Assembly: GCA_016186625.1 (NCBI GenBank)
Contig: JACPLG010000013.1
Span: forward strand, 1-57,084
DNA from: Candidatus Levyibacteriota bacterium
Lineage (GTDB): Bacteria > Patescibacteriota > Microgenomatia > Levybacterales > UBA12049
DNA length: 57,084 nucleotides
Direction of reading: 5' to 3'
Numbering within the stretch: the first letter of the stretch is position 1; every line of letters starts with the position of its first letter. The notes below the pieces were generated by a model, which was not told the origin of the DNA, ran no database searches, and saw only the letters and a program-made list of their open reading frames with translations. A program made the translations under genes and the position numbers. Shown one piece after another: positions 3,197 through 32,837 of the stretch.

Positions 3197-3766
3197 ATGA
3201 GAGGTGCAAAAGTAAGCAAAAAAAGAAAAGTACAAGAAGACGTAATCTATAATTCAAGGCTTGTTGCAAAGCTAATTAATAATATTATGAGGGACGGCAA
3301 GAAAACAGTAGCCCAGTCTTTGGTTTATGATACGTTTGACATTTTAGCCAAAAAAAGCCCTTCTACGAGTTCAACATCCGTTCGACCCGTTCGAGATTCT
3401 CAGGGCAAGCAAGCTCAGGATAAAGGCTCACTGCAAGCAGGCGCAGGGCAAGAGAGCCCATTATCTCTTTTTGAAAAAGCTGTTCAGAATGTGGGTCCAA
3501 GAACAGAAATAAAGGCTCGCCGTGTAGGAGGAGCTTCATATCAAATACCAATTGAAGTTAGGGGAGACCGCCGGACAGCTCTAGCACTCCGCTGGATAAT
3601 TGAAGCAGCAAGAGCTAAATCAAATAAGGATTTCCACACATTTCCGGAAAAATTGGCAGCAGAGATAGTGGATGCTTCCCAAAACCAAGGTGAAGCAATA
3701 AGAAAGCGTGACAATGTCCATAGAATGGCCGAAGCCAACAAAGCTTTCTCCCATTTCCGCATCTAA
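3197..3766 (+). CDS. rpsG: 30S ribosomal protein S7 carrying a ~32-aa internal insertion
   Basis: S7 blocks VIYNSRLVAKLINNIMRDGKK and RRVGGASYQIPIEVRGDRR are present. An inserted PSTSSTSVRPVRDSQGKQAQDKGSLQAGAGQES sits between them. Confidence 0.92.
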   Translation: MRGAKVSKKRKVQEDVIYNSRLVAKLINNIMRDGKKTVAQSLVYDTFDILAKKSPSTSSTSVRPVRDSQGKQAQDKGSLQAGAGQESPLSLFEKAVQNVGPRTEIKARRVGGASYQIPIEVRGDRRTALALRWIIEAARAKSNKDFHTFPEKLAAEIVDASQNQGEAIRKRDNVHRMAEANKAFSHFRI

Positions 3767-3772
3767 ATCCCC

Positions 3773-4102
3773 ATGAAAACCCTCTATGTTCGCAGTCGAA
3801 AACAATGGAGGGAGTGGCTGGAGAAAAATCATGATAAAGAGAAAGAGATTTGGCTTGTTTATTATCGAAAAACCAGCGGAAAACCTACTGTCTCCTATGA
3901 CGAATCTGTTGAAGAAGCCTTGTGTTTTGGCTGGATTGACAGCAAAGAAAAAAGTTTGGACTCGGAAAGATATGCCGGGCGCTTTACTCCCAGAAAACCT
4001 AAATCCAACTGGTCACCCTCAAATCGCGCCCGCGCCAAGCGTTTGATTGAATCGAAACAAATAACAGATGCCGGTCGCAAAGCTTTACCGAAAGACTTAT
4101 AA
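3773..4102 (+). CDS. YdeI/OmpD-associated family protein, N-terminal half only (apparently truncated)
   Basis: IWLVYYRKTSGKPTVSYDESVEEALCFGWIDS...RFTPRKPKSNWS is typical of the YdeI family. The usual C-terminal domain is missing. Confidence 0.6.
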   Translation: MKTLYVRSRKQWREWLEKNHDKEKEIWLVYYRKTSGKPTVSYDESVEEALCFGWIDSKEKSLDSERYAGRFTPRKPKSNWSPSNRARAKRLIESKQITDAGRKALPKDL

Positions 4103-4140
4103 CCGCAAAATCGGCACAATAATGTAGCTTCCCACATTCC

Positions 4141-4368
4141 ATGTGGGAACACAGATGTGGGGATAGAGGAATAGAAATTACAAAACCGCAAGATCGGAAG
4201 GAAGAAACAAAAATTATTCCTACTGCGCCACTTGAGTTTGATTTAAGCAATGGTGAACCACCTTCTCATGCTGACATTATTGCTGAGATTGAGAGAAACC
4301 AGAGGGAAATCTCTGAGCTGAGAGCTCAACAGGCTAGTGCTACAACCGAAACCCCATCCTCTAGCTAA
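4141..4368 (+). CDS. hypothetical protein (weak call)
   Basis: This is an ORF only. The start codon lies inside a 9-bp-stem hairpin, and an intrinsic terminator follows at 4396-4421. Confidence 0.3.
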   Translation: MWEHRCGDRGIEITKPQDRKEETKIIPTAPLEFDLSNGEPPSHADIIAEIERNQREISELRAQQASATTETPSSS

Positions 4369-4395
4369 GACTTCTATTTTGTGGTATACTCATTT

Positions 4396-4421
4396 AGCTT
4401 CCAATTCCTGGGAGCTTTTTT
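4396..4421 (+). terminator. rho-independent terminator-like hairpin plus T-run
   Basis: The sequence AGCTTCCA-attcc-TGGGAGCT is followed by TTTTTT. Confidence 0.5.
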
Positions 4422-4584
4422 AGATAATAATTTGGATGATTTCAAAATTTCTTGGAGACGCTCCGCGACGCATCGGCTAGGTCCTCAAATCCCGATTGCC
4501 GCTTCGCTAGCGCACCTAGCAAAATTTCAAAATCATCCAATGCAGATTTGAGATTTGATTTTTGATTTATAATTTAAATGAAGT

Positions 4585-6720
4585 ATGGCAGATATAGCAA
4601 ACAGACATTTTGATTTGGAAAAGATTCGAAATATTGGCATTATTGCCCATATTGACGCGGGGAAAACCACCACAACCGAACGAATCCTTTTTTACACAGG
4701 ACGAACCCACAAAATTGGTGATATTGACGAGGGAACAACTGTTATGGACTGGATGAAAGAGGAGCGGGAGCGGGGAATCACAATAGTTAGTGCTGCCACC
4801 ACAGCTTTCTGGACTCCGACTGAAGGTTTATCAAAAGAGGTTGAACACCGCATAAACATCATAGACACTCCCGGACATGTTGATTTTACGGCAGAAGTTG
4901 AACGCTCACTTAGGGTTTTGGACGGAGGAATTACAGTTTTGGACGCAGAGGAAGGAGTGCAATCCCAGTCTGAAACTGTCTGGCGCCAGGCTGATAAATA
5001 TAAAGTTCCAAGAATTTGTTTCATCAATAAAATGGACAAGCTTGGAGCAGACTTTTTGGCTACCATTAAATCTATTGAAGACAGACTTGGTGCAAATCCG
5101 GCAATTATGGTTTTACCCATCGGCGCCGAGCAAGCGTATGTCGGCAATATTGATCTTTTAACCCGCAAGGCTTATCGCTGGGGGGGAGACGAACTTGGTG
5201 CGAAATACGATGTAGGGGATGATATTCCAGCGGAGATGAAGGACAAGGTAGAGGAATACCGCCACAAATTAATTGAAAAGATTGCAGAGACTGATGACGG
5301 GCTTTTGGAGAAATACCTCAATGGGCAGGAGCCAACTGTTGATGAACTCAGAGCAGCGCTTCGAAGAGCTGTAATTAGTTATAAATTAGTGCCCATTTAT
5401 GCCGGTTCGTCTTTACGCAATAAAGGAGTCCAGCCTTTGCTTGACGGCGTAGTTGAATACCTACCAAGTCCGGTGGACCTTAGGCAAGTAAAGGGACATA
5501 ATCCTAAGACAAATGCAGAAGAAGTTCGATTACTCGTAGAAGATGCCCCACTTGCAGGACTAGCCTTTAAGATTCAGAACGATCCGCATGTTGGAAAACT
5601 GACATATTTTAGAGTTTATTCCGGAAAACTAACGTCTGGAAGCTATGTTTATAACGCTACAAAGGACCTTAAAGAGAGAGTAGGCCGCCTTCTTCTTATG
5701 CACTCAAATCAGCGGGAAGAAATAAAAGAAGCATATGCCGGAGAAATTGTAGCAATAGTTGGCCTTAAAGATACAGGCACAGGAGATACTTTATCTGATG
5801 AGGGAAAACCAATAGTTCTTGAAAAAATTTCATTCCCGGAGCCTGTAATATCCTTGGCAATTGAGCCAAAAACAAAATCTGATCAGGAGAAGCTCGGTAT
5901 GGCCCTCAAAAGGCTTATGGATGAGGATCCAACCTTTCAAGTAAAAACCAATCATGAAACAGGACAGACTATCATCTCAGGAGTAGGAGAGCTGCAATTG
6001 GAAGTTAAAGTCAACACTATGAAAGCTGATTTTGGAGTTGATGCAAATGTGGGCGCACCTCAAGTAGCATATAAAGAAACTATCAAAGAGACTGCAACAG
6101 GAGAAGGAAAATATATAAGACAGTCCGGAGGACGCGGACAATACGGACATTGTTTCCTTAGAGTAAAGCCCAGGCCCCGCGGAGAAGGTAATGAGTTTAT
6201 CAATTCTATAAAAGGAGGAGCGATTCCGGCTGAATTTATAAAATCAATTGAAAAAGGAGTAAAGGAGAGTCAAGAAAACGGAATTTATCTAGGATATCCT
6301 GTGACAGATATGAGCGTTGAGGTTTATGACGGATCATTTCATGAAGTTGATTCTTCTGAAATCGCCTTTAAAATTGCAGCCTCAAAAGCTCTTCAGGCTG
6401 CTGCCAAGAATGCCAAGCTTACACTTCTTGAGCCAATCATGAAAGTTGAGGTTACAACGCCGTCTGAGTTTTTGGGAGATGTAATTGGAGATCTTTCGTC
6501 AAAAAGAGCACAAATTTCAGGAACCGAAGAGCATGGAAAGGCAACTATAATTCTGGCAATGGTGCCACTCGCAGAGCTCTCTGGTTATGCAACAGTATTG
6601 CGATCGATGACTCAAGGAAGAGCCAGTTATTACATGGAGCCTTCACATTACGAAGAAGTTCCTCAAAACATCCAGCAGCAAATGTTAGCTACCTCCACCT
6701 TCACAGGAAGAGTTGAATAA
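4585..6720 (+). CDS. fusA: elongation factor G
   Basis: AHIDAGKTTTTERILFYTG, DTPGHVDF and NKMDK GTPase motifs are present in a full-length 711 aa protein. Confidence 0.97.
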   Translation: MADIANRHFDLEKIRNIGIIAHIDAGKTTTTERILFYTGRTHKIGDIDEGTTVMDWMKEERERGITIVSAATTAFWTPTEGLSKEVEHRINIIDTPGHVDFTAEVERSLRVLDGGITVLDAEEGVQSQSETVWRQADKYKVPRICFINKMDKLGADFLATIKSIEDRLGANPAIMVLPIGAEQAYVGNIDLLTRKAYRWGGDELGAKYDVGDDIPAEMKDKVEEYRHKLIEKIAETDDGLLEKYLNGQEPTVDELRAALRRAVISYKLVPIYAGSSLRNKGVQPLLDGVVEYLPSPVDLRQVKGHNPKTNAEEVRLLVEDAPLAGLAFKIQNDPHVGKLTYFRVYSGKLTSGSYVYNATKDLKERVGRLLLMHSNQREEIKEAYAGEIVAIVGLKDTGTGDTLSDEGKPIVLEKISFPEPVISLAIEPKTKSDQEKLGMALKRLMDEDPTFQVKTNHETGQTIISGVGELQLEVKVNTMKADFGVDANVGAPQVAYKETIKETATGEGKYIRQSGGRGQYGHCFLRVKPRPRGEGNEFINSIKGGAIPAEFIKSIEKGVKESQENGIYLGYPVTDMSVEVYDGSFHEVDSSEIAFKIAASKALQAAAKNAKLTLLEPIMKVEVTTPSEFLGDVIGDLSSKRAQISGTEEHGKATIILAMVPLAELSGYATVLRSMTQGRASYYMEPSHYEEVPQNIQQQMLATSTFTGRVE

Positions 6721-14434: not shown

Positions 14435-14515
14435 TCCCTTCAGGTAATTTTCAATTCTCAATTTACAATTTTCAATCAATTCCACAATTTTAATTTCTAG
14501 TAAACACTCTTCCTT

Positions 14516-14546
14516 GCCCCTCGTAGCCTCATGCGGAGTGGGGTGC
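14516..14546 (-). repeat. GC-rich element, reverse-oriented copy of 33338-33365
   Basis: The reverse complement GCACCCCACTCCGCATGAGGCTACGAGGGGC aligns with GACCCCACTCCGCCAAGGCTTCGCGGGGC in the rplQ tail. Confidence 0.6.
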
Positions 14547-14557
14547 TATAATTGCCC
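14544..14557 (+). promoter_or_regulatory. TGCTATAATTGCCC box, copy 1 (extended -10-like)
   Basis: An identical 14-mer recurs at 14721 and 15176. Confidence 0.5.
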
Positions 14558-14671
14558 ATCAAAAATATCAATCCTAGCCTCAAAAGGTCTCACCTTGCAA
14601 GGGTAAAATATCCGTCGACTAGTACACGATACTAAGCTTAAATTTCTAAACATAAGGGGAGGTTCGTTATC

Positions 14672-14697
14672 ACTTCAATGATTTAAATCATTGAAGT
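14672..14697. promoter_or_regulatory. perfect 26-bp palindrome
   Basis: The sequence is ACTTCAATGATTT|AAATCATTGAAGT. Confidence 0.8.
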
Positions 14698-14720
14698 ATG
14701 CGAAAACAAAACTAAACGTT

Positions 14721-14734
14721 TGCTATAATTGCCC
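14721..14734 (+). promoter_or_regulatory. TGCTATAATTGCCC box, copy 2
   Basis: It is an identical 14-mer. Confidence 0.5.
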
Positions 14735-14751
14735 GATCTAGTTTGCGCTAG

Positions 14752-14780
14752 TTGACATTAAATTTCTTTCGTCGCATAAT
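14752..14780 (+). promoter_or_regulatory. promoter for leaderless VOC gene
   Basis: TTGACA-N17-CATAAT is present. ATG 14787 lies 6 nt after the -10 box. Confidence 0.6.
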
Positions 14781-14786
14781 TACCCC

Positions 14787-15795: not shown

Positions 15796-15801
15796 TTCCT
15801 C

Positions 15802-15830
15802 TTGCATTTAGGCATATGCTTAGCTATAAT
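15802..15830 (+). promoter_or_regulatory. near-consensus promoter upstream of rplC leader
   Basis: The sequence reads TTGCAT-N17-TATAAT. Confidence 0.65.
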
Positions 15831-15943
15831 TACAAGTACAAAATGGCTAGACAAACACAGGCCACCGGCCTCGGAGGGCTTCTGGCCCGGAGGGAGGTGA
15901 TTGTAGCTACATAGGCTCATTTTTCAAAGTAACTCTTGAAGAG

Positions 15944-15968
15944 AGCGACACTATGTGGTCGCTTTTTT
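15944..15968 (+). terminator. intrinsic terminator/attenuator in rplC leader
   Basis: AGCGAC-actatgtg-GTCGCT is followed by TTTTT. Confidence 0.6.
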
Positions 15969-15984
15969 GTTGCTTAGCCCCTTT

Positions 15985-16040
15985 GTCATCCTGAGTGAAA
16001 CGAAGGATCTTTTAAGATTCTTCACTTCGTTCAGAATGAC
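15985..16040. repeat. GTCATCCTGAG...CAGAATGAC hairpin element (intergenic copy)
   Basis: GTCATCCTGAGTGAAACGAAGGATCTTTTAAGATTCTTCACTTCGTTCAGAATGAC is self-complementary and homologous to 54113-54169. Confidence 0.85.
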
Positions 16041-16048
16041 ATTTTTAT

Positions 16049-18090: not shown

Positions 18091-18828
18091 ATGAAGAAAT
18101 TATTTAAAATTAAAAAGAAAAAGTCTGGAAGAAGTAGAGGGCAAGTGGTTGTCAGGCATCAGGGCGGAGAACATAAAAGGTATCTTCGAGAAATCGATTT
18201 TAAAAGAGATAAATCTGATATTTGGGGAAGTGTTGTTTCAATTGAGTACGATCCAAACAGAAAAGCCAGAATTGCTCTTGTAAGTTATTCAGACGGAGAG
18301 AAAAGATATATAATTGCGCCCTCTGATTTAAAAGTTAATGATAAAGTTTTAGCCGGAAAAGATGCCGATATAAAAGTTGGAAATTCACTGCCGCTTGGCT
18401 CTATTCCGGTGGGAACAGTGGTTCATAATGTTGAGCTTACTCCAGGAAGAGGAGGACAATTAGCAAGAGGTGCGGGAACCGGCGCTATTATACAAGCCCG
18501 AGAAGGTAACTATGTTCAGATAAAACTTCCGTCAGGAGAATTAAGAAAAGTTCTTAGTGCGTGTATGGCAACAGTTGGGACGATATCCAATATTGATTGG
18601 AAAAATGAAGTTATAGGCTCAGCCGGTAGAAAACGCCATATGGGAATTAGGCCAACAGTCAGAGGAGTTGCTCAAAACCCAAGATCACACGCTCACGGCG
18701 GAGGAGAAGGAAGATCCGGAATTGGACTTAAACGACCAAAGACTTACGCAGGGCGTCCTGCGTTTGGAAAAACAAGAAATCCAAAGAAATATTCGAATAA
18801 ATATATCTTAAAAAGGAGGGGCAAATAG
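18091..18828 (+). CDS. rplB: 50S ribosomal protein L2 (N-terminus ~30 aa shorter than typical)
   Basis: [37 protein letters not shown] and HAHGGGEG are present. Confidence 0.93.
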
Positions 18829-18876
18829 TTACAAGTTCGATTTGGACTAACAACTTATAACTAAGAACTAATAACT
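18829..18876. repeat. TTATAAG-word hairpin element, copy 1
   Basis: TTACAAGTTCGATTTGGACTAACAACTTATAACTAAGAACTAATAACT is homologous to 19217, 23075 and 31091. Confidence 0.8.
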
Positions 18877-18884
18877 GAAAGAGT

Positions 18885-19169: not shown

Positions 19170-19216
19170 AAAAATTCAAAAATGCAAAATTCAAAATTAC
19201 AATTAAAGGAGGAAAA

Positions 19217-19285
19217 GTTATAAGTTATAAATTATGAGTTATAAGTTCGGGCTAAACTAATAACTTATAACTAAGAACTAATAAT
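19217..19285. repeat. TTATAAG-word hairpin element, copy 2
   Basis: The sequence is GTTATAAGTTATAAATTATGAGTTATAAGTTCGGGCTAAACTAATAACTTATAACTAAGAACTAATAA. Confidence 0.8.
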
Positions 19286-19296
19286 TTAATTTGTTT

Positions 19297-19719
19297 ATGC
19301 AAATTGTTACTAGGGTAAATGATTTAAGAATCAGTACAAGAAAGATAAGATTGGCAGCAGAAGCTGTTAGAAATTTGGGTGTTTCAGAAGCGCTAGACTC
19401 TTTATCAGTTATTGAAAAAAGAGGAAGCAGAGCTTTGGAAAAAGTTCTAAGATCTGCAATTGCCAACGCAGTGAATAATTCAAAGCTTGATAGGGCAAGT
19501 CTCATGATTAAAAGTATTGATGTAAATGAGGGAACAGCGCTTAAGCGATATAGGCCATCAACGAGAGGAAGAGTGCATCCTTATAAAAAAAGAAGCACCA
19601 ATATTAGGATAGTGCTGGAAGAAAAATCCGAAATAAGAAATACGAAATCCGAAACAAATTCAAAAGGAAAAAATAACGAAAAACAAATAGAAATAGAAGA
19701 AAAGGAGGTTACGAAATAG
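19297..19719 (+). CDS. rplV: 50S ribosomal protein L22 with Lys/Glu-rich C-terminal extension
   Basis: LRISTRKIRLAAEAVRNL and RYRPSTRGRVHPYKKRSTNIRIVL are present. The tail is encoded by CGAAA/TCCGAAA words. Confidence 0.92.
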   Translation: MQIVTRVNDLRISTRKIRLAAEAVRNLGVSEALDSLSVIEKRGSRALEKVLRSAIANAVNNSKLDRASLMIKSIDVNEGTALKRYRPSTRGRVHPYKKRSTNIRIVLEEKSEIRNTKSETNSKGKNNEKQIEIEEKEVTK

Positions 19720-19755
19720 TTTCGAATTTCGATATTCGAGTTTCGAATTTTAATC

Positions 19756-20400
19756 GTGGGACATAAAGTAAATCCAAAATTATTCAGACTCGGCCCAGTT
19801 TATAACTGGGATAGCAGATGGTTTGATGATAAAAATTACGCAGCAACTCTTCTTGAGGATTACAAATTGCGAAAGGCCATTGTGGAAAAGCTTAAGACTG
19901 CCGGAATTTCTTCTGTTGAGATAGAGCGCTCAATAAATAGCATCAGAATTACTGCTTATGTTTCCAAACCCGGAATTGTTATCGGAAGAGGTGGGGCAGG
20001 GCTTGAAGAGCTTAAGAAATTTTTAGTTAAAGAACTTTTAAAAACTAAGAAAGGGAAAACTCTGCCAAAGATGGATATAAGAATAGAGCCGATTAAAGAA
20101 CCAAATCTTGATGCATATCTGGTTGCGAAAAATATTTCTGACCAATTGGCTAGACGTATGCCACACAAAAGAGTTATGACACAGGCTGTTGAGCGAGCTA
20201 TGACATCCGGTGCACTTGGCATTAGAGTGGTTCTTGCAGGAAGGATCGGAGGAGCAGAGATTGGAAGACGAGAAAAATTACAGCAAGGAACAGTGCCTCT
20301 ATCAACAATTAGAGAGCATATAAGCTTTGCAAGCGTTCCTTCTCTTACAAAAAAGGGCTACATTGGAGTCAAAGTCTGGATTAATAGGAAAGAAAGTTAA
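19756..20400 (+). CDS. rpsC: 30S ribosomal protein S3
   Basis: GHKVNPKLFRLG, a KH domain and GRIGGAEIGRRE are present, with a GTG start. Confidence 0.95.
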   Translation: MGHKVNPKLFRLGPVYNWDSRWFDDKNYAATLLEDYKLRKAIVEKLKTAGISSVEIERSINSIRITAYVSKPGIVIGRGGAGLEELKKFLVKELLKTKKGKTLPKMDIRIEPIKEPNLDAYLVAKNISDQLARRMPHKRVMTQAVERAMTSGALGIRVVLAGRIGGAEIGRREKLQQGTVPLSTIREHISFASVPSLTKKGYIGVKVWINRKES

Positions 20401-20443
20401 AAATTAAAAATGAAAAATTCAAAATTACAATTAAAAATTAATT

Positions 20444-20546
20444 CGCTCGGGGTCCTGTCGCTCGTTCTCCCTCCCGCCAGTGCTCGTTCACGACTCACTG
20501 AGCTCCGCGCTGTCGGGATCCCTTCCACTCGCACCACCCCTCGCTT
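20444..20546 (+). repeat. ~100-nt GC-rich element, copy A
   Basis: It is about 88% identical by eye to the reverse complement of 27080-27179. GC content is far above the surrounding sequence. Confidence 0.9.
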
Positions 20547-20597
20547 AATTGGATATTGGAAATTTGAAATTGGATATTCTGCCCTGAAAGGAGAGCC

Positions 20598-21008
20598 ATG
20601 TTAGTACCAAAGAGAGCTAAATATAGAAAACAAATGAGAGGGAAACTTACAGGAGTTGCCCATGCCGGGACCAGAATTTCCTTTGGAGAATATGGACTCA
20701 TTTCTGAAGGGACTGGTTGGGTTACGGCGCGTCAGATTGAATCAGCAAGACGTGCAATAACTCATTATACGCAGCGTGGTGGACGCGTCTGGATAAGAAT
20801 TTTTCCGGATAAGCCAATTTCTAAGAAACCGCCGGAGGTCAGGATGGGAGGAGGAAAAGGGGATGTAACTGAATTTGTGGCACCGGTTAAGCGCGGCAGA
20901 ATGCTCTTTGAAATGGCAGGAGTAGATAGTGAAACCGCTTATGCGGCACTAAGACTCGCTGCGCATAAATTAAGCGTTAAAACAAGAATAGTAAAAAAAG
21001 AGGAATAA
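20598..21008 (+). CDS. rplP: 50S ribosomal protein L16
   Basis: [15 protein letters not shown]...RMGGGKG is present. Confidence 0.96.
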
Positions 21009-21011
21009 AAT

Positions 21012-21248
21012 ATGAAATTAAAAGAAATTATTGGAAAATCTGATAAAGAGTTAAAAGAGCTTCTTTCAGAGAAAAATGAAGAATTGATTAAACTTAAGCT
21101 TGATAACAAACTTAATAAGCTTAAAAATACAAGGTCAATTTTCAATGCTCGGAAGGAGATTGCAAGAATCTTAACCCTTATTAAGGAAAGAGAGTTAGCC
21201 CTTCGACAAGCTCAGGAAGAATCGCCAAAGGAGGAAAAAGAGTTATAG
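21012..21248 (+). CDS. rpmC: 50S ribosomal protein L29
   Basis: Size, position and the KELKELLSEKNEELIKLK pattern support the call. Confidence 0.85.
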   Translation: MKLKEIIGKSDKELKELLSEKNEELIKLKLDNKLNKLKNTRSIFNARKEIARILTLIKERELALRQAQEESPKEEKEL

Positions 21249-21266
21249 GCTAATAACTAGTAAGTT

Positions 21267-21674
21267 ATGAAAATATTTGAAGGAATTATTGTTTCAACAG
21301 GAATGAAAAATACAGCTGTGGTGGAGCTTTACAGAAAAACGCCCCATCCAATATACAAAAAACTTATAAAGAGAAGTAAAAAATTTAAGGCAGACAACAG
21401 AGGCTTTGAGGAAGCAGGGGTTGGAACTCTAGTTCAGATTACCGAGACTAGGCCGATTTCCAAAGACAAACATTTCAAGATTACAAAAATTGTAGGCCAA
21501 AGAGAAATAATAAATGAAAAACCTGAAACTACAGTGTCACTGAAAGAAACTGAAGTACCCGCCGACGCTAAAGCTTTGGAGGGCAAGCAGAAAGAGTCTG
21601 GCAGAAAAGTAGCTAAATCAGCTAAGCCAGTAAAGAAAGTTGTTCGAAAGATAGCAAAGAAGGAGGCAAAATAG
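21267..21674 (+). CDS. rpsQ: 30S ribosomal protein S17 with ~50-aa C-terminal extension
   Basis: GIIVSTGMKNTAVVEL...YKK...KKFKADN...VQITETRPISKDKHF is present. Confidence 0.9.
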   Translation: MKIFEGIIVSTGMKNTAVVELYRKTPHPIYKKLIKRSKKFKADNRGFEEAGVGTLVQITETRPISKDKHFKITKIVGQREIINEKPETTVSLKETEVPADAKALEGKQKESGRKVAKSAKPVKKVVRKIAKKEAK

Positions 21675-21728
21675 TTTAAAGTTCAAAGTAAAAAGTTCAA
21701 AATTAACTTTTAACTTTTAATTAATATC

Positions 21729-22103
21729 ATGGTACAGCATAGGAGTATCTTAAAAGTTGCAGATAATTCAGGAGCAAAAACTTTAATGGTGATTCAAGCA
21801 AGGGGTGGCTCAAAAAGAAAATTTGGATACCTGGGAGAGGTTATAAAATGCGTGGTAAAAGAAGCAAGTCCAACTGGAGCGGTTAGGGAGAGCGACATGG
21901 TAGAAGCCATTCTTGTAAGAACCCGAAAAGAACATAGAAGACAGGATGGATCATATATAAGATTTTCAGACAATGCGGCAGTTCTGATTGATAACAGAAA
22001 AGATAAAAATCCGATCGGTACAAGAATATTTGGACCGGTTGCAAGAGAGATAAGAGACAAAGGTTTCACCAAGATTACCAGTATGGCCGCAGAGGTATTA
22101 TAA
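21729..22103 (+). CDS. rplN: 50S ribosomal protein L14
   Basis: [17 protein letters not shown]...[11 protein letters not shown] is present. Confidence 0.96.
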
Positions 22104-22187
22104 TATGAATCCCGTTAGAAAAATTTCGTCTAAAGCAGTAAATTTTAATATAACATTAAGCCTTTTAAGGAGGGGTAATCTAGCGGG

Positions 22188-22493
22188 ATGAAGCTCAAAC
22201 GTGGGGATGAAGTTATTGTTGTCAAAGGAAAAGATAGGGGTAAAAAAGGAAAGATAGAGAAGGTTTTGATAAAAGAGAATATGGTTTTGGTGCCGGGTGT
22301 AAATCTTTATAAGAGACATTACAAATCCAGAACTCAAACCAAGCCTTCTGAGATTATAGAGATAACAAAGCCGCTTCCAATTGGGAATGTGGCAATTATT
22401 TGTCCAAATTGTCATAAAGAGACGAGAATAGGATATAAGATTGATAATAAAGAGAAAGTGAGGATTTGCAGAAAATGCAATAAAAAAATATAA
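22188..22493 (+). CDS. rplX: 50S ribosomal protein L24 (with CxxC...CxxC zinc-ribbon tail)
   Basis: MKLKRGDEVIVVKGKDRGKKGKI is a KOW motif. CPNCHK...CRKCNK follows. Confidence 0.9.
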   Translation: MKLKRGDEVIVVKGKDRGKKGKIEKVLIKENMVLVPGVNLYKRHYKSRTQTKPSEIIEITKPLPIGNVAIICPNCHKETRIGYKIDNKEKVRICRKCNKKI

Positions 22494-22495
22494 AA

Positions 22496-23038
22496 ATGGA
22501 AAATTTAGCAACGACTTTTAATACAAACATAGCCGGGAATCTTAAAAAAGAACTGGGTCTTAAAAACAAATACGCTGTTCCAAGACTTAAGAAGATCGTA
22601 ATTAACATGGGAATAAAGGATGCATTAGCAGATAAAAAGAATATTGAAATTGCAACTGAAGTATTGGCTAAGATTTCCGGACAAAAACCAAAAGTGACAA
22701 AAGCCCGAAAATCTATTTCAACATTCAAACTTAGAGAAGGGGATAAAATTGGAGTAATGGTAACCTTGCGGAGAAAAAGAATGTATGATTTTTACGAAAA
22801 ATTAGTAAAGATAGTTTTGCCTAGACTGCGAGATTTTCGCGGAGTTACAACAAAAAGTTTTGACGGAAGGGGTAATTATTCACTAGGTTTTTCAGAGTCA
22901 ATAGTATTTCCTGAAATTGATCCTTCAAAAATCGAGAAGGTCCAAAGTCTTGAAGTAACAATTATAACATCAGCAGCAAATGATAGAGAAGGGGAGCTGC
23001 TTTTAAGAGCACTGGGAATGCCATTCCAAAAAATTTAA
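22496..23038 (+). CDS. rplE: 50S ribosomal protein L5
   Basis: PRLKKIVINMG...KFKLREGDKIGVMVTLR...RDFRG...FDGRGNYSLG is present. Confidence 0.95.
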   Translation: MENLATTFNTNIAGNLKKELGLKNKYAVPRLKKIVINMGIKDALADKKNIEIATEVLAKISGQKPKVTKARKSISTFKLREGDKIGVMVTLRRKRMYDFYEKLVKIVLPRLRDFRGVTTKSFDGRGNYSLGFSESIVFPEIDPSKIEKVQSLEVTIITSAANDREGELLLRALGMPFQKI

Positions 23039-23074
23039 AATGAAAAAGTCAAAACTACAATTAAAGGAGAAAAA

Positions 23075-23105
23075 GTTATAACTTATAACTAAGTACTAAT
23101 AACTA
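23075..23105. repeat. TTATAAG-word element, short copy 3
   Basis: The sequence is GTTATAACTTATAACTAAGTACTAATAACTA. Confidence 0.7.
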
Positions 23106-23113
23106 GTTAAGCC

Positions 23114-23299
23114 ATGGCTAAAAAATCAAATATTGTTAAATTTCAAAAAAAGCAAAAATACAATGTTAGGAAAAAGAACATTTGTAATATTTGTGGAAGA
23201 TCAAAAGGATTCATGCGAAAATTCGGAATATGCAGAATCTGTTTTAGAGAACTTGCAATGAAGGGAGAATTACCGGGTGTTATAAAAGCCAGTTGGTAA
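23114..23299 (+). CDS. rpsN: 30S ribosomal protein S14 type Z
   Basis: It is 61 aa with [23 protein letters not shown] and ends in W. Confidence 0.95.
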
Positions 23300-23335
23300 A
23301 TAAGTTAATAGTTTAAGGTTAAAAATTAAAAGTTT

Positions 23336-23728
23336 ATGAATCATACAGTTTCAGATTTTTTGACTAGAATAAAAAACGCTTCAATGGCAAGACGCCGGGA
23401 AGTAACTTTACCTTATTCAAATATAACTAAAGAAATAGGAAAGGTACTTGTGAAAGAAGGATTTTTGCAAGAAATCAAAGAAGCAAAAAAAGATAACCGG
23501 AGATCTTTGCATGCAGTGATTGCTTATGAGAAAAGAAGCCCTAGGCTTTCCGATGCAGTTATGGTTTCAAAACCTTCTCTTAGGGTTTACAAAACTTCAA
23601 AGACTATTTCAGATATTGAAAGAAGGGGAAAACATAAAGTGATTCTAACAACCAGTCAAGGTGTTATGACAGGTAAAGACGCCCGGAAAAAAGGAATAGG
23701 AGGAGAAATTTTGTTCGAAATTTGGTAG
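23336..23728 (+). CDS. rpsH: 30S ribosomal protein S8
   Basis: SDFLTRIKNA...TSQGVMTGKDARKKGIGGEILFEIW is present. Confidence 0.95.
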   Translation: MNHTVSDFLTRIKNASMARRREVTLPYSNITKEIGKVLVKEGFLQEIKEAKKDNRRSLHAVIAYEKRSPRLSDAVMVSKPSLRVYKTSKTISDIERRGKHKVILTTSQGVMTGKDARKKGIGGEILFEIW

Positions 23729-23817
23729 GACAGACAGGGAATAGGAAAATAAGATTAAAGTGATAAGTTTAAAATATTCTGATCACTGAAATCTTTTAAT
23801 CCTAAAATCTTAAAATT

Positions 23818-24375
23818 ATGTCAAAAATAGCAAAAAAACCAGTTCAAATAGTAGAAGGCGTACAAGTTATTCTTGAAAATGACCAAATTAAAATAGCAGG
23901 ATCTAAAGGAAATTTGATTTTTAATATACCGCAAGGCATTGGCGTAAAAATTGAAAATGATAAAGTTATTATTTCGCAGAAGGAAGAGACAGAGCGGGCA
24001 AAAGCTTTATCAGGTTTGGTTAGAGCAAATATCGCAAATATGATAAAAGGTGTCGTGGATGGTTTCTCAAAAAAACTAGAGCTCACCGGAGTTGGATACA
24101 GAGCTCAAGCAGCCGGAAACAGCCTTACTCTTTCCGTTGGATATTCTCATCCGGTAATTATTAAAGCAGACCCGACCATTTCGTTTTCAGTTGAAGATAA
24201 TATTATTACCGTAGAAGGGCCGGATAAAACTCTAGTTGGAGACACAGCGGCAAAAGTAAGGTCAGTTAGGCCCCCAGAACCATATAAAGGAAAAGGAATT
24301 AAATATCAGGGAGAATATATAAGAAGAAAAGTCGGAAAAGCGGCAAAAGCGATAGGAGCAATAGGAACGAAATAA
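23818..24375 (+). CDS. rplF: 50S ribosomal protein L6
   Basis: SKIAKKPV...LELTGVGYRA...PEPYKGKGIKY is present. Confidence 0.95.
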   Translation: MSKIAKKPVQIVEGVQVILENDQIKIAGSKGNLIFNIPQGIGVKIENDKVIISQKEETERAKALSGLVRANIANMIKGVVDGFSKKLELTGVGYRAQAAGNSLTLSVGYSHPVIIKADPTISFSVEDNIITVEGPDKTLVGDTAAKVRSVRPPEPYKGKGIKYQGEYIRRKVGKAAKAIGAIGTK

Positions 24376-24404
24376 AATAAAATATAAAATATAAAAAATA
24401 AAAT

Positions 24405-24746
24405 ATGAAAAAGAAGAATAGACAATTGAGAAGAAAAGTTCGAATCAGATCAAAAATCAGCTCTAATAAAGATCGATTAAGGCTGTCTGTTTACAGATCG
24501 AATAAACATCTTTTTGTCCAGCTCATAGATGATGTTAAGGGTAATACATTGCTTGGAGTATCAGATAAAAGTTTAAAAGACGGCGGGACAAAAACTGAAA
24601 GAGCTAAGGCACTCGGCCTTTTACTTGCAAGTAAATTAAAAATAAAGAAAATTAAAAAAATAGTTTTTGACAGAGGAAGCTATGCATATCATGGGAGAGT
24701 AAAGAGTATTGCAGAAGGACTCAGGGAAGGAGGAGTAGAATTTTAA
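24405..24746 (+). CDS. rplR: 50S ribosomal protein L18
   Basis: RLSVYRSNKHLFVQLIDD...VFDRGSYAYHGRVKSIAEGLREGG is present. Confidence 0.95.
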   Translation: MKKKNRQLRRKVRIRSKISSNKDRLRLSVYRSNKHLFVQLIDDVKGNTLLGVSDKSLKDGGTKTERAKALGLLLASKLKIKKIKKIVFDRGSYAYHGRVKSIAEGLREGGVEF

Positions 24747-24747
24747 A

Positions 24748-25242
24748 ATGAAAGATACAAATATAACTGCCCAGATTGACAGAAAACAGGAAGAGTATGA
24801 AGAAAAAATAGTCCAGGTTAATCGCGTTTCCAAAAAAACAAAAGGAGGAAATAAGATTGGATTCTCTGCTCTTGCTGTTGTTGGTGACGGAAAGGGAAAA
24901 GTAGGAGTTGGTCTTGGTAAGGCACCGGATGTCTCCTCAGCTATCCGAAAAGGAGTAAGTATTGCAAAAAAGAATATGGTGGAAATTCCGATTATAAATG
25001 GAACAATTCCTTTTGAATTCAACATAAAACTGGGGGCTGCCAAGGTTCTTTTAAAACCCGCACCTCCAGGCTCAGGTGTTATTGCGGGAGGGGCAGTTAG
25101 AAGCGTTGTAACTGCTGCAGGAATCCATAATATCTCATCAAAAGTTCTTGGAACAAAAAATCAGGCGAGTAATGTTTATGCAACAATTGAAGCATTAAGA
25201 CTTTTATCTTTAAGATATAAAAGGGAACAGGAAAGGAAATAA
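24748..25242 (+). CDS. rpsE: 30S ribosomal protein S5
   Basis: VNRVSKKTKGGNKIGFSALAVVGDGKGKVGVGLGKA is present. Confidence 0.95.
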   Translation: MKDTNITAQIDRKQEEYEEKIVQVNRVSKKTKGGNKIGFSALAVVGDGKGKVGVGLGKAPDVSSAIRKGVSIAKKNMVEIPIINGTIPFEFNIKLGAAKVLLKPAPPGSGVIAGGAVRSVVTAAGIHNISSKVLGTKNQASNVYATIEALRLLSLRYKREQERK

Positions 25243-25716
25243 ATGAGTTTAAATAGCTTGCCAAAAATAAAAAAACACAGTAAAAAAAGACTCGGTCAGG
25301 GACATGGTTCGGGAAGGGTCAAAACTGCGGGTCGCGGAACAAAAGGACAAAAAGCCAGAAATAAAGTTTCTTTATCCTTTGAAGGAGGAGCCTTGCCTCT
25401 TATCAAAAGACTTCCAATGAGACGCGGAAAAGGAAGAAATAAAAACCTAAGACACGGTCCTTTGATAGTAAATGTCAAATATCTCAATACACTTAACGAG
25501 AATCAAGTTGTTGATGTAGAGTCACTTATTAAAAAAGGAATTGTAAAAGCTGGGGACGCAAGAGAATTTGGTGTTAAAATATTAGGAGACGGAGAGATTA
25601 AACAGGCTTTAATTATTAAATTACCTATTTCAATAAGCGCAGCCAAAAAAATTGAGAAAGCAGGCGGTCACGTAGAACGCGACATGTCTAATCGAATTGA
25701 ATCAGTTATAAAATGA
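25243..25716 (+). CDS. rplO: 50S ribosomal protein L15 (directly abuts rpsE; no L30 gene)
   Basis: KKRLGQGHGSGRVKTAGRGTKGQKAR is present. Confidence 0.95.
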   Translation: MSLNSLPKIKKHSKKRLGQGHGSGRVKTAGRGTKGQKARNKVSLSFEGGALPLIKRLPMRRGKGRNKNLRHGPLIVNVKYLNTLNENQVVDVESLIKKGIVKAGDAREFGVKILGDGEIKQALIIKLPISISAAKKIEKAGGHVERDMSNRIESVIK

Positions 25717-25720
25717 TCCA

Positions 25721-25742
25721 GCCAAGCCACGTTTGACGTGGC
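25721..25742 (-). repeat. CCACGTCAAACGTGG hairpin element (intergenic copy)
   Basis: The reverse complement GCCACGTCAAACGTGGCTTGGC matches 45340-45362. Confidence 0.75.
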
Positions 25743-25759
25743 AGGAGGACGTGTAAAAC

Positions 25760-27046
25760 ATGGAACATCTTCTTAGATTAATTAGAAACAGTTTAAAAGC
25801 GCCAGACGTAAGAAAAAAGCTTATGTTCACTTTTTTCATTCTTGTAATCTTTCGTATTTTTGCCCATATTCCAGTTTCTGGTGTTGACCTAGTCCAGCTA
25901 AAGGCACTTTTTGCTCAGAGTCAGCTCTTGGGGTTACTTGATATTTTTTCTGGAGGAACTTTAGCTAATTTTTCAGTAATGGCACTAGGCCTTAATCCTT
26001 ATATTAATGCTTCAATTATAATGAATTTAGGAACTTTGGTGTTTCCTAAGCTTGAGGAACTCCAAAAAGAAGGAGAGATGGGACGGAAGAAAATTAACCA
26101 ATACACAAGATTTTTAACAGTTCCGCTAGCATCAGTTCAGGCTGTTGGAATGTTTGCTCTTTTGAAAAGCCAAGGAATTATTTTCTTGGATAATCCTATT
26201 CTAATATTGTCATTTATCCTGACAATGACTGCTGGGACTATGTTTTTGGTCTGGCTGGGAGAGCTTATTACTGAAAAAGGTGTGGGAAACGGTATTTCTA
26301 TTTTAATCTTTGCTGGTATTGTTGGAAGATTTCCGGTTATTTTTGGACAAACCATCACAACAGCTACATCCCAAAACTTATTTAACATTCTCAGCTTTGT
26401 TGTTATGGGGCTATTGGTGATAGGACTGATAGTTATTGTTAATGAGGCCACCAGACAAATAACAGTTCATTATGCAAGAAGAGTTAGGGGAAACAGAATG
26501 TATGGAGGTCAGTCCACCCACTTACCACTTCGTCTTAACCAGGCAGGAGTGATACCGATCATTTTTGCGATTTCACTAATACTTCTTCCAAGTCTTTTTG
26601 CAAATTACCTAACAGCTTCATCAAATCAAGTTCTAAAAAGTATTGCAACTGAGGTTACGATTTGGTTTAATCCCAATGGGCCAATTTATAATATTTCATA
26701 TTTTCTTTTAGTTGTTGTATTTACCTACTTCTATACAGCAGTGGTTTTCAATCCTAAAAAAATTGCTGAAGAAATCCAAAAATATGGAGGTTTTATCCCC
26801 GGAATTAGACCTGGAACTGAGACGGCAAAATATTTGAATTATATTCTTACAAGAATTACCTCCGCTGGAGCTATATTTTTAGGCTTTATTGCAATTCTGC
26901 CTGTAATTGGACGATCGGTTACCAATGTGCAAACACTTCTGTTGGGAGGAACGGGAATTCTAATTGTGGTTTCAGTAGTTTTGGAAACCATTAAATCAAT
27001 TGAAGCGCAGCTTGTTATGAGAAATTATGAGGGATACCAGAAATAA
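25760..27046 (+). CDS. secY: preprotein translocase subunit SecY
   Basis: It is a 10-TM protein with [23 protein letters not shown] and [19 protein letters not shown]. Confidence 0.96.
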
Positions 27047-27079
27047 TATTAAATATAAAATATTAAATAGCAAATAGTT

Positions 27080-27179
27080 AGCGAGGGGTGGTGTGAGTGG
27101 AAGGGTTCCCGACAGCGTGCAGGCGAGTGAATCGTCGACGAGCACTGGCGGGAGGGAAAGGAGCGACAGGACCCCGAGC
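27080..27179 (-). repeat. ~100-nt GC-rich element, copy B (inverted relative to copy A)
   Basis: The reverse complement aligns end to end with 20445-20546. Confidence 0.9.
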
Positions 27180-27190
27180 AACAAACTTAT

Positions 27191-27730
27191 ATGAAGATAA
27201 TTTTGATAGGAATTCAAGGTGCAGGAAAGTCAACACAAGGAAATATTCTTTCTGAAAAGTTAGGTATTCCGTATCTTTCAACAGGACACATTTTCCGTGA
27301 AATGGCCAAAGAAAAATCAAAACTTGGCCGCTACATAAAGGAAACTATGAATGCTGGATATTTAATTCCTGATGATAAAACAGTTGAGATAGTTAAGAAA
27401 TATCTTGAAAAACCTGAGTATGCCAAGGGGTATATAATTGATGGATTTCCAAGAACAGTTGCTCAGGCGCACGCTTTTGAGAATGGGGCAAAAAAAGCAA
27501 TTTATCTCAAAGTAACTGATGAGGAAGCTTTGAAAAGAATTAGTTTTCGAAATGGCAACGAGCGAGCAGACGAAACACCAGCGGCGATTGCAAAAAGAAT
27601 TGAGTCGTTCCATATTCACACAGAGCCAGCGATTGATTATTACAGGCAAAAAGGAATGCTTGTGGAAATCGATGGTGAAAAATCAATCGAAGAGATAAGT
27701 AAAGATATACTCAGGAGTATTGGGAAGTGA
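27191..27730 (+). CDS. adk: adenylate kinase (short type)
   Basis: MKIILIGIQGAGKSTQ...YLSTGHIFRE...IIDGFPRTVAQA is present. Confidence 0.9.
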   Translation: MKIILIGIQGAGKSTQGNILSEKLGIPYLSTGHIFREMAKEKSKLGRYIKETMNAGYLIPDDKTVEIVKKYLEKPEYAKGYIIDGFPRTVAQAHAFENGAKKAIYLKVTDEEALKRISFRNGNERADETPAAIAKRIESFHIHTEPAIDYYRQKGMLVEIDGEKSIEEISKDILRSIGK

Positions 27731-29604: not shown

Positions 29605-29647
29605 TTAGTACTTGTCCTTTTGAGGCTAGTTTGGTATAATAAAGGCC

Positions 29648-29731
29648 AAATTCGAATATCGAATATCGAAATTCGAAACGTAATCGGAAATGTATTTGTT
29701 TCGAGCTTCGGATTTCGAGCTTCGGATTTTT
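29648..29731 (+). repeat. CGAA/TTCG word palindrome upstream of infA
   Basis: AAATTCGAATATCGAATATCGAAATTCGAAACG...GTTTCGAGCTTCGGATTTCGAGCTTCGGATTTTT is homologous to 32711-32837. Confidence 0.8.
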
Positions 29732-29734
29732 ATT

Positions 29735-29953
29735 ATGGCGCATCAAGGGTCATTTGAGGTGGAAGGAAAAGTTCTGGAGTCTCTGCCCAATACTTTATTT
29801 AGAGTAGAGCTTGGGGATGGTAAAATAATTATCTGCCATTTATCTGGGAAAATGAGGATGAATTTTATAAAGATTCTCCCTGGAGACAGAGTCCGAGTAG
29901 AGATGACGCCATATGACGGCTCAAAAGGAAGAATTACTTTCAGGCTAAAATAG
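29735..29953 (+). CDS. infA: translation initiation factor IF-1
   Basis: [23 protein letters not shown]...[29 protein letters not shown] is present. Confidence 0.95.
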
Positions 29954-31057: not shown

Positions 31058-31090
31058 AATTATGAATTACGAATTAAGAAAGGAGAAAAA

Positions 31091-31155
31091 GTTATAAGTT
31101 ATAAGTTATAAGTTCGATTTGGACTAATAACTTATAACTAAGCACTAATAACTTA
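31091..31155. repeat. TTATAAG-word hairpin element, copy 4
   Basis: The sequence is GTTATAAGTTATAAGTTATAAGTTCGATTTGGACTAATAACTTATAACTAAGCACTAATAACTT. Confidence 0.8.
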
Positions 31156-31162
31156 AAGACAG

Positions 31163-31782: not shown

Positions 31783-32706
31783 ATGATAGAGCCTAATTTT
31801 AAAGTAAAAGAAGAGAAGTCGACTTCGGATTTTGGGCAATTTAGTATTGAGCCGCTTGAGCCTGGATACGGTCATACCTTAGGTACTGCACTTCGTCGAG
31901 TTTTACTAATTTCTATTCCCGGAGTTGCTGTAACTTCTATTAAGATCTCAGGAGTAAAACACAGATTCTCAACACTTCCAGGACTTAAGGAAAATATTGT
32001 AGATTTGTTACTCAATATAAAAGGTTTAAATTTCAGACTGCTAAATTCTAAAGATCAAAGTAGCGTTAAGCTCTCAGTTAGAGGCCCAAAGGAAATTAAA
32101 GGAAAAGATTTAGAGCTTTCTGAGGACGTTGAAATTGCAAACCCAGATCACTATATTGGAACGCTTGCTGATAAAAAAGCCAAAATTGAAATGGAGATGA
32201 TAGTTGAGCGAGGATATGGTTATTCACTTGCTGAGGAGAGAAGAAGCAACGCTTTAGGAGTAATACCAACAGATGCAATATATTCCCCGGTGAGACGTGT
32301 AAATTTTTCAGTCTCTGCAACCCGTGTCGGAAGACAGACAAATTTAGATAAGCTAAATATCCAGATTTGGACAAACGGAATAATCTCGCCTAAGGAAGCG
32401 CTGGATCAGGCAGGAAGGACTCTCACCTCATACTTTCATCAAGTTTATGAGCCAAAAGCCGAAGAAGAGTCAATCTCTGATTCCTCAATACAAAAAATAC
32501 CAGAGACAGTTTTAAATCTTACAATTGATGAAATAGATCTGCCAACTAGAATTTATAATTCACTTAGAAACGGTGGGGTAGAAACAATAGGCCAACTTAT
32601 CCTAACCCCAAGAAAAGATTTAATTTCTATGAGAAATATGGGCGGAAAATCTATTACAATTATAGAAGAAAAATTAAAAGAAAAAGAGATCGAACTTCCT
32701 GCCTAA
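31783..32706 (+). CDS. rpoA: DNA-directed RNA polymerase alpha subunit
   Basis: GQFSIEPLEPGYGHTLGTALRRVLL is present, with a C-terminal domain carrying IDLPTRIYNSLRNGGVETIGQL. Confidence 0.95.
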   Translation: MIEPNFKVKEEKSTSDFGQFSIEPLEPGYGHTLGTALRRVLLISIPGVAVTSIKISGVKHRFSTLPGLKENIVDLLLNIKGLNFRLLNSKDQSSVKLSVRGPKEIKGKDLELSEDVEIANPDHYIGTLADKKAKIEMEMIVERGYGYSLAEERRSNALGVIPTDAIYSPVRRVNFSVSATRVGRQTNLDKLNIQIWTNGIISPKEALDQAGRTLTSYFHQVYEPKAEEESISDSSIQKIPETVLNLTIDEIDLPTRIYNSLRNGGVETIGQLILTPRKDLISMRNMGGKSITIIEEKLKEKEIELPA

Positions 32707-32710
32707 ATAC

Positions 32711-32837
32711 AAATCCGAATATCGAATTTCGAAACTCGAAACAATTTTCAAAACTCGAATAACAAATACTTAAAACATTTGAGTTTAGGAAATTAGAATT
32801 TGTTTCGTATTTCGGGTTTCGTGCTTCGGATTTTTTT
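32711..32837 (+). repeat. CGAA/TTCG word palindrome upstream of rplQ
   Basis: AAATCCGAATATCGAATTTCGAAACTCGAAAC...GTTTCGTATTTCGGGTTTCGTGCTTCGGATTTTT is present. Confidence 0.8.

Follow-up and report, generated by a model that had tools for sequence, protein, structure and literature searches.

What are the two GC-rich sequences of about 100 nt that bracket, in opposite orientations, the rplP-to-secY segment of a ribosomal protein operon in a Candidatus Levyibacteriota bacterium? They lie in contig JACPLG010000013.1 (assembly GCA_016186625.1), all 57,084 nucleotides of which were analysed and are referred to here as the window. We consider it probable, at about 0.8, that the two sequences, copies A and B, arose as independent insertions of a selfish mobile element, non-autonomous and about 100-140 nt long, that resembles the Rickettsia palindromic element (RPE) and resides in AT-rich, Microgenomates-type genomes of the candidate phyla radiation (CPR). 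We favour this reading because the element is dispersed in many copies, is patchy among relatives and has empty orthologous sites, and because it has entered unrelated genes in both orientations with the reading frame strictly kept and with decay after insertion. The inverted pairing of A and B around rplP-secY is incidental.

Copy A (20445-20545, plus strand) and copy B (27080-27179, minus strand) match end to end as an inverted pair. A first-pass annotation of this DNA had put their identity at about 88% with one 1-nt indel; alignment gives a mean column identity of 89% (flanks counted) and a single 1-nt indel, and the differences fall mostly within the central ~20 nt. In a repeat search the pair is the longest inverted repeat of the window (78 nt ungapped, 87%), and core blocks of 19 and 22 nt occur in it exactly twice each, with 0.00 expected from 100 shuffles. 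When the covariance model described below was run over the 57-kb window with filters off, it recognised only A (107.1 bits, E 7e-27) and B (97.6 bits); the next match scored 11.7 bits (E 0.64). The other descriptive claims of the annotation agree with our data as well. The copies were placed in the rpsC/rplP and secY/adk spacers, and indeed A lies between the open reading frames (ORFs) 19756-20400 and 20598-21008, while B fills almost the whole spacer between ORFs 25760-27046 and 27191-27730. SecY was identified by Pfam (PF00344), and L16, SecY and ADK were confirmed in the orthologous locus L199; the nearest named relatives of the window SecY are Candidatus Levybacteria, and a protein-cluster look-up returned no names for the window proteins. 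The GC content, said to be far above that of the surroundings, is 0.62-0.63 in both copies vs roughly 0.25-0.45 in adjacent 100-nt bins (background ~36%). The two ORFs that had been called spurious, 20410..20604 on the plus strand and 27078..27320 on the minus strand, antisense to adk, exist in the ORF list and run through A and B respectively. The element core is stop-free in almost any frame, and these ORFs owe their existence to the absence of stop codons from the sequence.

All copies of the element share one plan. The 5' half consists of P1 (a variable outer part and GGGT), CCTG, P2 (7-9 bp, variable), TTTCC, P3 CTCCCGCCAGTGCTCG and the tip, which ranges from 7 to 46 nt across the family; the 3' half continues with P3' CTGCGCGCTGTCGGGAG, CCCTTCC, P2', a C and P1' (ACCC and a variable outer part). 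Copy A, which runs from GCTCGGGGT to ACCCCTCGC(T), has its C-rich, folding strand on the plus strand. Its P1 5' arm GCTCGGGGT (20445-20453) pairs with ACCCCTCGC (20536-20544) around an internal TC/TC mismatch, and its P2 5' arm GT(C)GCTCGT (20457-20465) pairs with ACTCGCAC (20527-20534). Between the P2 strands lie the invariant 5' core CCCTCCCGCCAGTGCTCGT (20469-20487), which comprises the junction J2/3 and the P3 5' strand and is the source of the scan pattern used below, the variable apical hairpin (20488-20506), and the invariant 3' core GCGCTGTCGGGA, the P3 3' strand, followed by the pyrimidine junction TCCCTTCC (20507-20526). Copy B carries the C-rich strand on the minus strand. Terminal inverted repeats are present, as the P1 arms in the window and as GGGT...ACCC family-wide, and no GTAG motif was found at the element ends. 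Single copies fold with -29 to -38 kcal/mol; the RNA fold of copy A has -35 kcal/mol and a z of -3.5.

Beyond the window, prokaryotic genomes, one for each species, were searched for an exact 18-mer of the core, CCCTCCCGCCAGTGCTCG; the family counts given here rest on the matches listed, at least 116 loci. Among these matches there are roughly 50 low-GC loci, and every one of them contains a complete element. A covariance model built from 33 copies recognised at least 55 copies in 50 loci from about 30 low-GC metagenome-assembled genomes (MAGs), including some diverged copies without the 18-mer, and several MAGs hold three to six copies in the small number of loci retrieved. Matches in high-GC genomes (Streptomyces, Pseudonocardia and others) were set aside as coincidences in coding sequence, since the rest of the element is missing there. 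Two exact matches in viral contigs, neither of them recognised by the covariance model, were attributed to chance. Together with the repetition in the community and the empty sites described below, these copies bear out the proposal of the first-pass annotation that the pair may be a mobile element akin to miniature inverted-repeat transposable elements, or MITEs. That proposal had been linked to whether more than these two copies exist and whether relatives have them; the family does have many more, though close relatives do lack these two insertions.

Records that carry the element are titled Candidatus Levybacteria, Curtissbacteria or Roizmanbacteria, Microgenomates, Saccharimonadales or 'Patescibacteria group'. 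About 20 element-bearing MAGs, from binchicken third-party annotation (TPA) assemblies, are titled 'uncultured Gammaproteobacteria' (loci L003, L005, L009, L014, L016, L021, L022, L025, L026, L038-L040, L044, L052, L068, L076, L079, L081, L088, L090, L095, L096, L103, L104 and L110). These labels are probably wrong, because at least one such MAG, CAZFNO01, is syntenic with the window and encodes a SecY that is 76% identical. Full-text literature searches for CPR, Patescibacteria and Microgenomates found no description of such an element, and the family in CPR bacteria is apparently undescribed so far; the closest published work deals with RPEs and with coding palindromes of organelles.

The predicted fold is well supported across the family. 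In an alignment of 55 sequences, fitted to the covariance model and therefore favouring the structure, 94.1% of cells form standard pairs, vs 31-52% after the 3' partners have been shifted along by one to three columns. Eleven pairs have changed on both sides, in 128 cells, and none of 500 shuffles was as good as the observed pairing and covariation. Double changes in P1 and P2 are also visible in a raw MAFFT alignment. P1 is paired in 97.6% of cells, and its outermost pair alone has 27 double changes. P2 shows the strongest covariation in the family, with six of its eight pairs changed on both sides and G.U at the first two. Folding the C-rich strand gives 109 G.T pairs (55 outside one invariant pair), vs 17 for the opposite strand; the better pairing and the G.T count of the C-rich strand indicate that the selected fold is that of this single strand, as DNA or RNA. 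Two nested or expanded copies were also observed, one with about 50 extra GC-rich nt within the 3' junction (L096, 527-640) and one with an extra hairpin within the P3 3' strand (L067, 4021-4166).

Such a fold could belong to a cis-acting structured RNA of the ribosomal protein operon, for example an autoregulatory leader, processing site, stabiliser or attenuator, or to an independent family of small RNA genes. A conserved, covarying secondary structure with G.U pairs on one strand would be expected of such an RNA, structured RNAs of AT-rich genomes typically stand out by their high GC, and both copies would be transcribed within the operon. However, the flanking genes are all on the plus strand, so that the operon transcript carries the C-rich strand at A and the G-rich strand at B; copies elsewhere in the family lie inside the ORFs of unrelated genes in either orientation, and the closest relatives lack both copies and have spacers of only 0-12 nt in their place. 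No family of Rfam 15, in which ribosomal-protein leaders, small ribozymes, HEARO and IS605-orfB are included, matched the window at the gathering threshold, and a search of both strands of A and B at E up to 10 returned chance-level matches only. Neither a terminator-like site nor a U tract was found at A or B, where the hairpin is followed by TTAATTGG and TAACTATT respectively, and promoter-like sites at the two copies were not above chance. A tRNA/tmRNA scan of the window found only an unrelated tRNA-Pro. We therefore regard an operon RNA or small RNA gene as improbable. Of the first-pass suggestion of a structured RNA in one orientation, the fold itself stands, being real, covarying and strand-asymmetric; the role as a cis-acting operon RNA does not, because the element occurs in both orientations to host genes and inside ORFs, so that the fold is a property of the element.

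The spacers of related genomes provide empty sites. Across loci of 80 relatives (759 kb; SecY 49-91% identical) no copy of the element was found; with 2 copies per 57 kb, as in the window, there should have been about 27. In L117, whose SecY is 91% identical, nothing lies between secY and adk but the AT-rich stretch found before copy B in the window, and the window has the additional segment TTAGCGAGGGG...CCCCGAGCAAC. Site B is empty in L199 too. At site A, the rpsC/rplP spacer measures 2-18 nt in L118 (SecY 88%; ~12 nt), L120, L122 and L124. In CAZFNO01, site A is filled and site B is empty, and A and B therefore have separate insertion histories. Another relative, L121, has in its rpsC/rplP spacer (about 3245-3320) the short sequence TCGCTCACG-AAAATTTTCTAAGCT-CCCCGCGCT, followed by the same TTAATTGGAAATTGG flank and with ends that resemble the element's; an internal deletion may have left it as a remnant, or a small hairpin may have been there beforehand.

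The window is present in four groundwater DNA runs, which are available as unitigs (k=31). There, k-mer depth is about 500-2000 over the element vs 10-40 in its flanks, a 30-60-fold repetition in the community. Assembler contigs end at both copies, and the loose ends carry other loop variants. Depth, contig breaks and loop variants together fit a repeat that is present tens of times in the community. The same runs bear on a further idea of the first-pass annotation, namely that the pair is a substrate for inversion; recombination between the copies would then invert, or otherwise rearrange, the 6.5-kb rplP-to-secY segment. Two inverted repeats of 89% identity that bracket a segment invite this idea, and yet no strand-changing joint between A and B was found in the four runs (a weak test on unitigs only, which a rare inversion could escape). 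Inversion would moreover cut 14 essential genes off from their operon, inspection of the window ORFs reveals no evident recombinase gene, and the separate histories of A and B seen in CAZFNO01 also speak against inversion. The idea has thus found no support, and we give it hardly any credence. Runs X2-X4 do contain same-strand joints, from 20545 to 27052 (the element 3' end to AT-rich sequence just 3' of secY) and from 20427 to 20559 (skipping 131 nt around copy A, like an empty site). We did not accept them as alleles or rearrangements, since one side measures only 21-27 nt and other copies or the AT-rich repeats can account for them; further copies or variant strains may be their source.

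In the family as a whole many copies lie inside protein genes. By a simple ORF map, 32 of the 55 copies fall within long ORFs, and in all 32 the reading frame is kept and no stop is introduced. Twenty-six in-ORF copies have at least 40 aa of ORF on either side, 16 of them in sense and 10 in antisense orientation. Host genes recognised by Pfam encode LeuRS, UvrD, DnaX (in two MAGs), transketolase, a P-type ATPase (two copies in one gene), a Wzy_C-domain (O-antigen ligase) protein and a type IV coupling-like ATPase. TsaD was assigned by source name and Pfam, whereas an ATP-dependent DNA ligase, CarA, RadA, RluD and DprA were recognised by motifs only. The element adds a peptide of 31-47 residues that is rich in Pro, Ser, Ala, Gly and Arg and reads approximately GPVxxFPPASARS...LRAVGSPSxxxTP in sense copies and GGxSGRxPDSAQ...STGGRE or ...GLPTARS...RALAGGK in antisense copies. 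Although the core is open in all three sense frames, the FPPASAR frame is used by 13 of 14 sense copies, a preference that points to selection on the peptide. A profile search with the insert peptide against a database of 5.8 billion proteins was uninformative, with 9 short ORFs at E<=1.

In the three hosts examined, the insert position is compatible with the host fold, being a loop or linker. Alignment to PDB structures places the insert of Prs between residues 160 and 167 of 1dkr, in the inter-domain linker, and that of CarB between residues 695 and 697 of 5dot, in a tight turn, with no aligned residues lost in either. An AlphaFold model of TsaD with the insert has a mean predicted local distance difference test score (pLDDT) of 89.7, but only 51-63 over residues 71-100, which correspond to the insert. 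When ten copies with tight flanks were checked, nine were found between distinct complete genes. The locus L017 of a Saccharimonadales MAG (3730-6001) has the element between a 413-aa ORF (membrane/Competence part) and a 297-aa ORF (metallo-beta-lactamase part); this may be a ComEC gene split by the element, the sole such candidate among the ten.

Copies inside genes need not be translated if the segment is cut from the mRNA, as a new kind of very small intron, or is bypassed by the ribosome. Ribosome bypass has precedents in the GC-rich byps of Magnusiomyces mitochondria and in T4 gene 60. The presence of copies in highly conserved regions of essential enzymes, the stable conserved hairpin and the GC-rich nature of the inserts in an AT-rich genome would all suit removal or bypass. 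Yet all 32 in-ORF copies are in frame and stop-free, and the sense copies favour one of three open frames; removal of the segment would leave no reason for either constraint. Among the in-gene copies about 40% are antisense, so that the mRNA has the strand with fewer standard pairs. Old copies, furthermore, gather changes that break the stems and still keep the frame, as is seen in the differences between the orthologous ligase copies of L090 and L116. Removal or bypass is accordingly disfavoured, and we think it very improbable.

How long the element persists after insertion is best seen in TsaD. The loop between the helix end ...EEALKK and the strand IDYIAVTYGPGL varies from 25 to 80 residues among 120 orthologues, and many orthologues have an intact or eroded element peptide at this place. 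Persistence of copies in one TsaD loop through speciation, and a core that is highly conserved across CPR classes, might mean that the element is a module that benefits the host, for example as DNA to which a protein binds or as a source of flexible linkers, and that it is kept by selection and not by selfish spread. Against this stand its patchiness among close relatives, insertion places that are unrelated to each other, and decay after insertion, seen in the ligase copies of L090 and L116 and in the second copies in L045, L116 and L016, which score only 32-54 bits. A beneficial module is thus very unlikely in our judgement, and selfish spread remains the reading that we prefer.

Two other kinds of insert were noticed in the TsaD loop. 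About a dozen orthologues, among them protein P0029 of a JGI groundwater contig (L200, about 1190-1350), have in this loop an insert of a second, unrelated hairpin family (~130 nt, peptide ...SELASR...SLRRSFAQTSTR...). Here the antisense strand folds better, with -57.9 vs -42.9 kcal/mol. Its existence indicates that there are several in-frame hairpin families in these bacteria. The TsaD orthologues P0033, P0049, P0050, P0057, P0067, P0094 and P0096 have no GC-rich element and carry tandem peptides in the same loop, before IDYIAVT, including FQISNFKFQIS, FKIKNLKFKIKN and LGIKSYELGVKK. These suggest insertions of AT-rich repeats in coding sequence, akin to the repeats in the spacers of the window.

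How would such an element spread? We propose that only copies whose C-rich strand adopts the conserved fold would be mobilised, and that a trans-acting enzyme would recognise a single-stranded DNA or RNA intermediate. Recognition of the fold on the C-rich strand would explain why the stems covary, G.T(U) pairs are tolerated and the loops are fixed. Of the insertions into genes, only those that are in frame, stop-free and located in surface loops would survive selection; they would be translated and would later decay. The window copies would have no dedicated function, adding stable hairpins to the S10-spc transcript and two spurious ORFs. A more specific proposal, which we put forward as possible though rather doubtful, is that the element moves via a folded single-stranded intermediate by means of an enzyme class new to such repeats, of the HUH or reverse-transcriptase type and widespread in Microgenomates; hairpin-templated synthesis could then account for the AT-rich stem extensions described next.

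Several observations weigh against selfish mobility. Outside P1, about 11% of the copies have 6-12 extra, perfectly paired AT-rich bp (arm GC 0.24), vs 0.4% in mismatched controls. These outer stems might have been derived from the target, but we dropped this as a general rule because the CarB alignment showed both arms to be extra, inserted sequence and because A/T-rich arms are common to a subfamily (L030, L045, L021). The core is about 90% identical between CPR classes, a degree of conservation that is unusual in junk DNA and might reflect some function for the host. A MAG with a SecY only 76% identical also has a copy at site A, and yet this site is empty in an 88% relative, a pattern that needs recurrent insertion at one spot, loss, or recombination. 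No target-site duplication was visible, either in the comparison of filled and empty secY/adk sites with L117 or in the flanks of 50 copies; TTAATT stands on both sides of copy A, and the orthologous copy in L068 is without it. Neither a transposase or reverse transcriptase nor a longer autonomous partner turned up, with no genome-wide search made for RAYT or TnpA, and half-elements did not occur among the fetched loci. Lastly, we infer the translation of the in-gene copies from reading-frame evidence only.

Among known systems, the RPE is the closest by description. As an observed class, the CPR element is RPE-like: a long-hairpin repeat with many in-frame, in-gene copies at fold-compatible positions in three hosts. 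RPEs (Ogata et al. 2000 Science, as summarised in PMC10969869) are likewise hairpin repeats of 100-150 bp without coding capacity of their own, dispersed in a small AT-rich genome; a large share of them stand in frame within housekeeping genes unrelated to each other, at sites that suit the protein fold, and no transposase is known for them. The likeness is one of described properties, and the hosts are CPR/Patescibacteria in one case and Alphaproteobacteria in the other. The CPR element differs from the RPE in its high GC content within an AT-rich genome, in its use in both orientations, and in having three stems supported by covariation, a core invariant across several candidate classes and a tip whose length varies.

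Bacterial MITEs such as ERIC/IRU, RUP, Correia and BOX (PMC10969869) are also small and non-autonomous, have terminal inverted complementarity, lie in either orientation in operon spacers, are co-transcribed with their neighbours and are occasionally intragenic. In contrast to these, the CPR element shows no visible target-site duplication and no known insertion sequence has the same ends. About half of its copies are intragenic, a far higher share, and its loops are conserved while its stems covary, whereas the usual MITE pattern is conservation of the terminal repeats. The hairpin, the strand asymmetry and the lack of a visible target-site duplication are shared with the REP/REPIN-RAYT system (HUH Y1) and with PATEs, which derive from IS200/IS605. 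REP/REPIN and PATE hairpins are recognised as single strands and mobilised in trans. REPs, however, are extragenic with a 5' GTAG, while the CPR element is about half intragenic and has no GTAG. It also differs from REP/REPIN and PATEs in having no consistent orientation, the window copies being inverted 6.5 kb apart. Organelles offer a further parallel in the GC clusters of yeast mitochondria, the byps and the coding palindromes of Volvox (PMC2670323) and Nematomorpha (PMC6649704), selfish GC-rich or palindromic hairpins that have invaded AT-rich genomes, coding regions included. These, however, are organellar, and byps interrupt the frame and are bypassed, whereas the in-gene copies of the CPR element are all in frame and open.

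The element is not the only repeat in the ribosomal protein region of the window. Spacers of the S10-spc region are unusually long and packed with AT-rich repeat families (14435-14786, 15796-16048, 18812-18879, 19170-19290, 19619-19752, 20401-20444, 20546-20597, 23029-23102, 29641-29739, 31089-31156, 32701-32835 and 44650-44687), where the rpsC/rplP spacer of relatives has 2-18 nt. The repeats include AAAATTCAAAATTACAATTAAAGGAGG, a ~68-nt AT-rich palindrome AAGTTATAAGTT...AACTTATAACTT and the periodic TTTCGAATTTCGA. Some of them appear to run into gene ends, for example the 3' end of rplV.

Palindromic repeats that colonise essential genes in frame have so far been regarded as peculiar to Rickettsia and a few organelles; the same behaviour is now found in CPR bacteria, across several candidate classes. 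It explains many of the odd low-complexity inserts of 30-50 residues and spurious small ORFs in CPR annotations, as well as assembly breaks in CPR MAGs. To our knowledge, how RPE-type elements enter genes in frame has been unknown since 2000. If the route via a folded intermediate proved true, it would be the first tractable model for this entry. The CPR family provides a large and diverse set of copies, with fixed loops and covarying stems, from which it could be worked out how RPE-type elements are recognised and which enzyme mobilises them.

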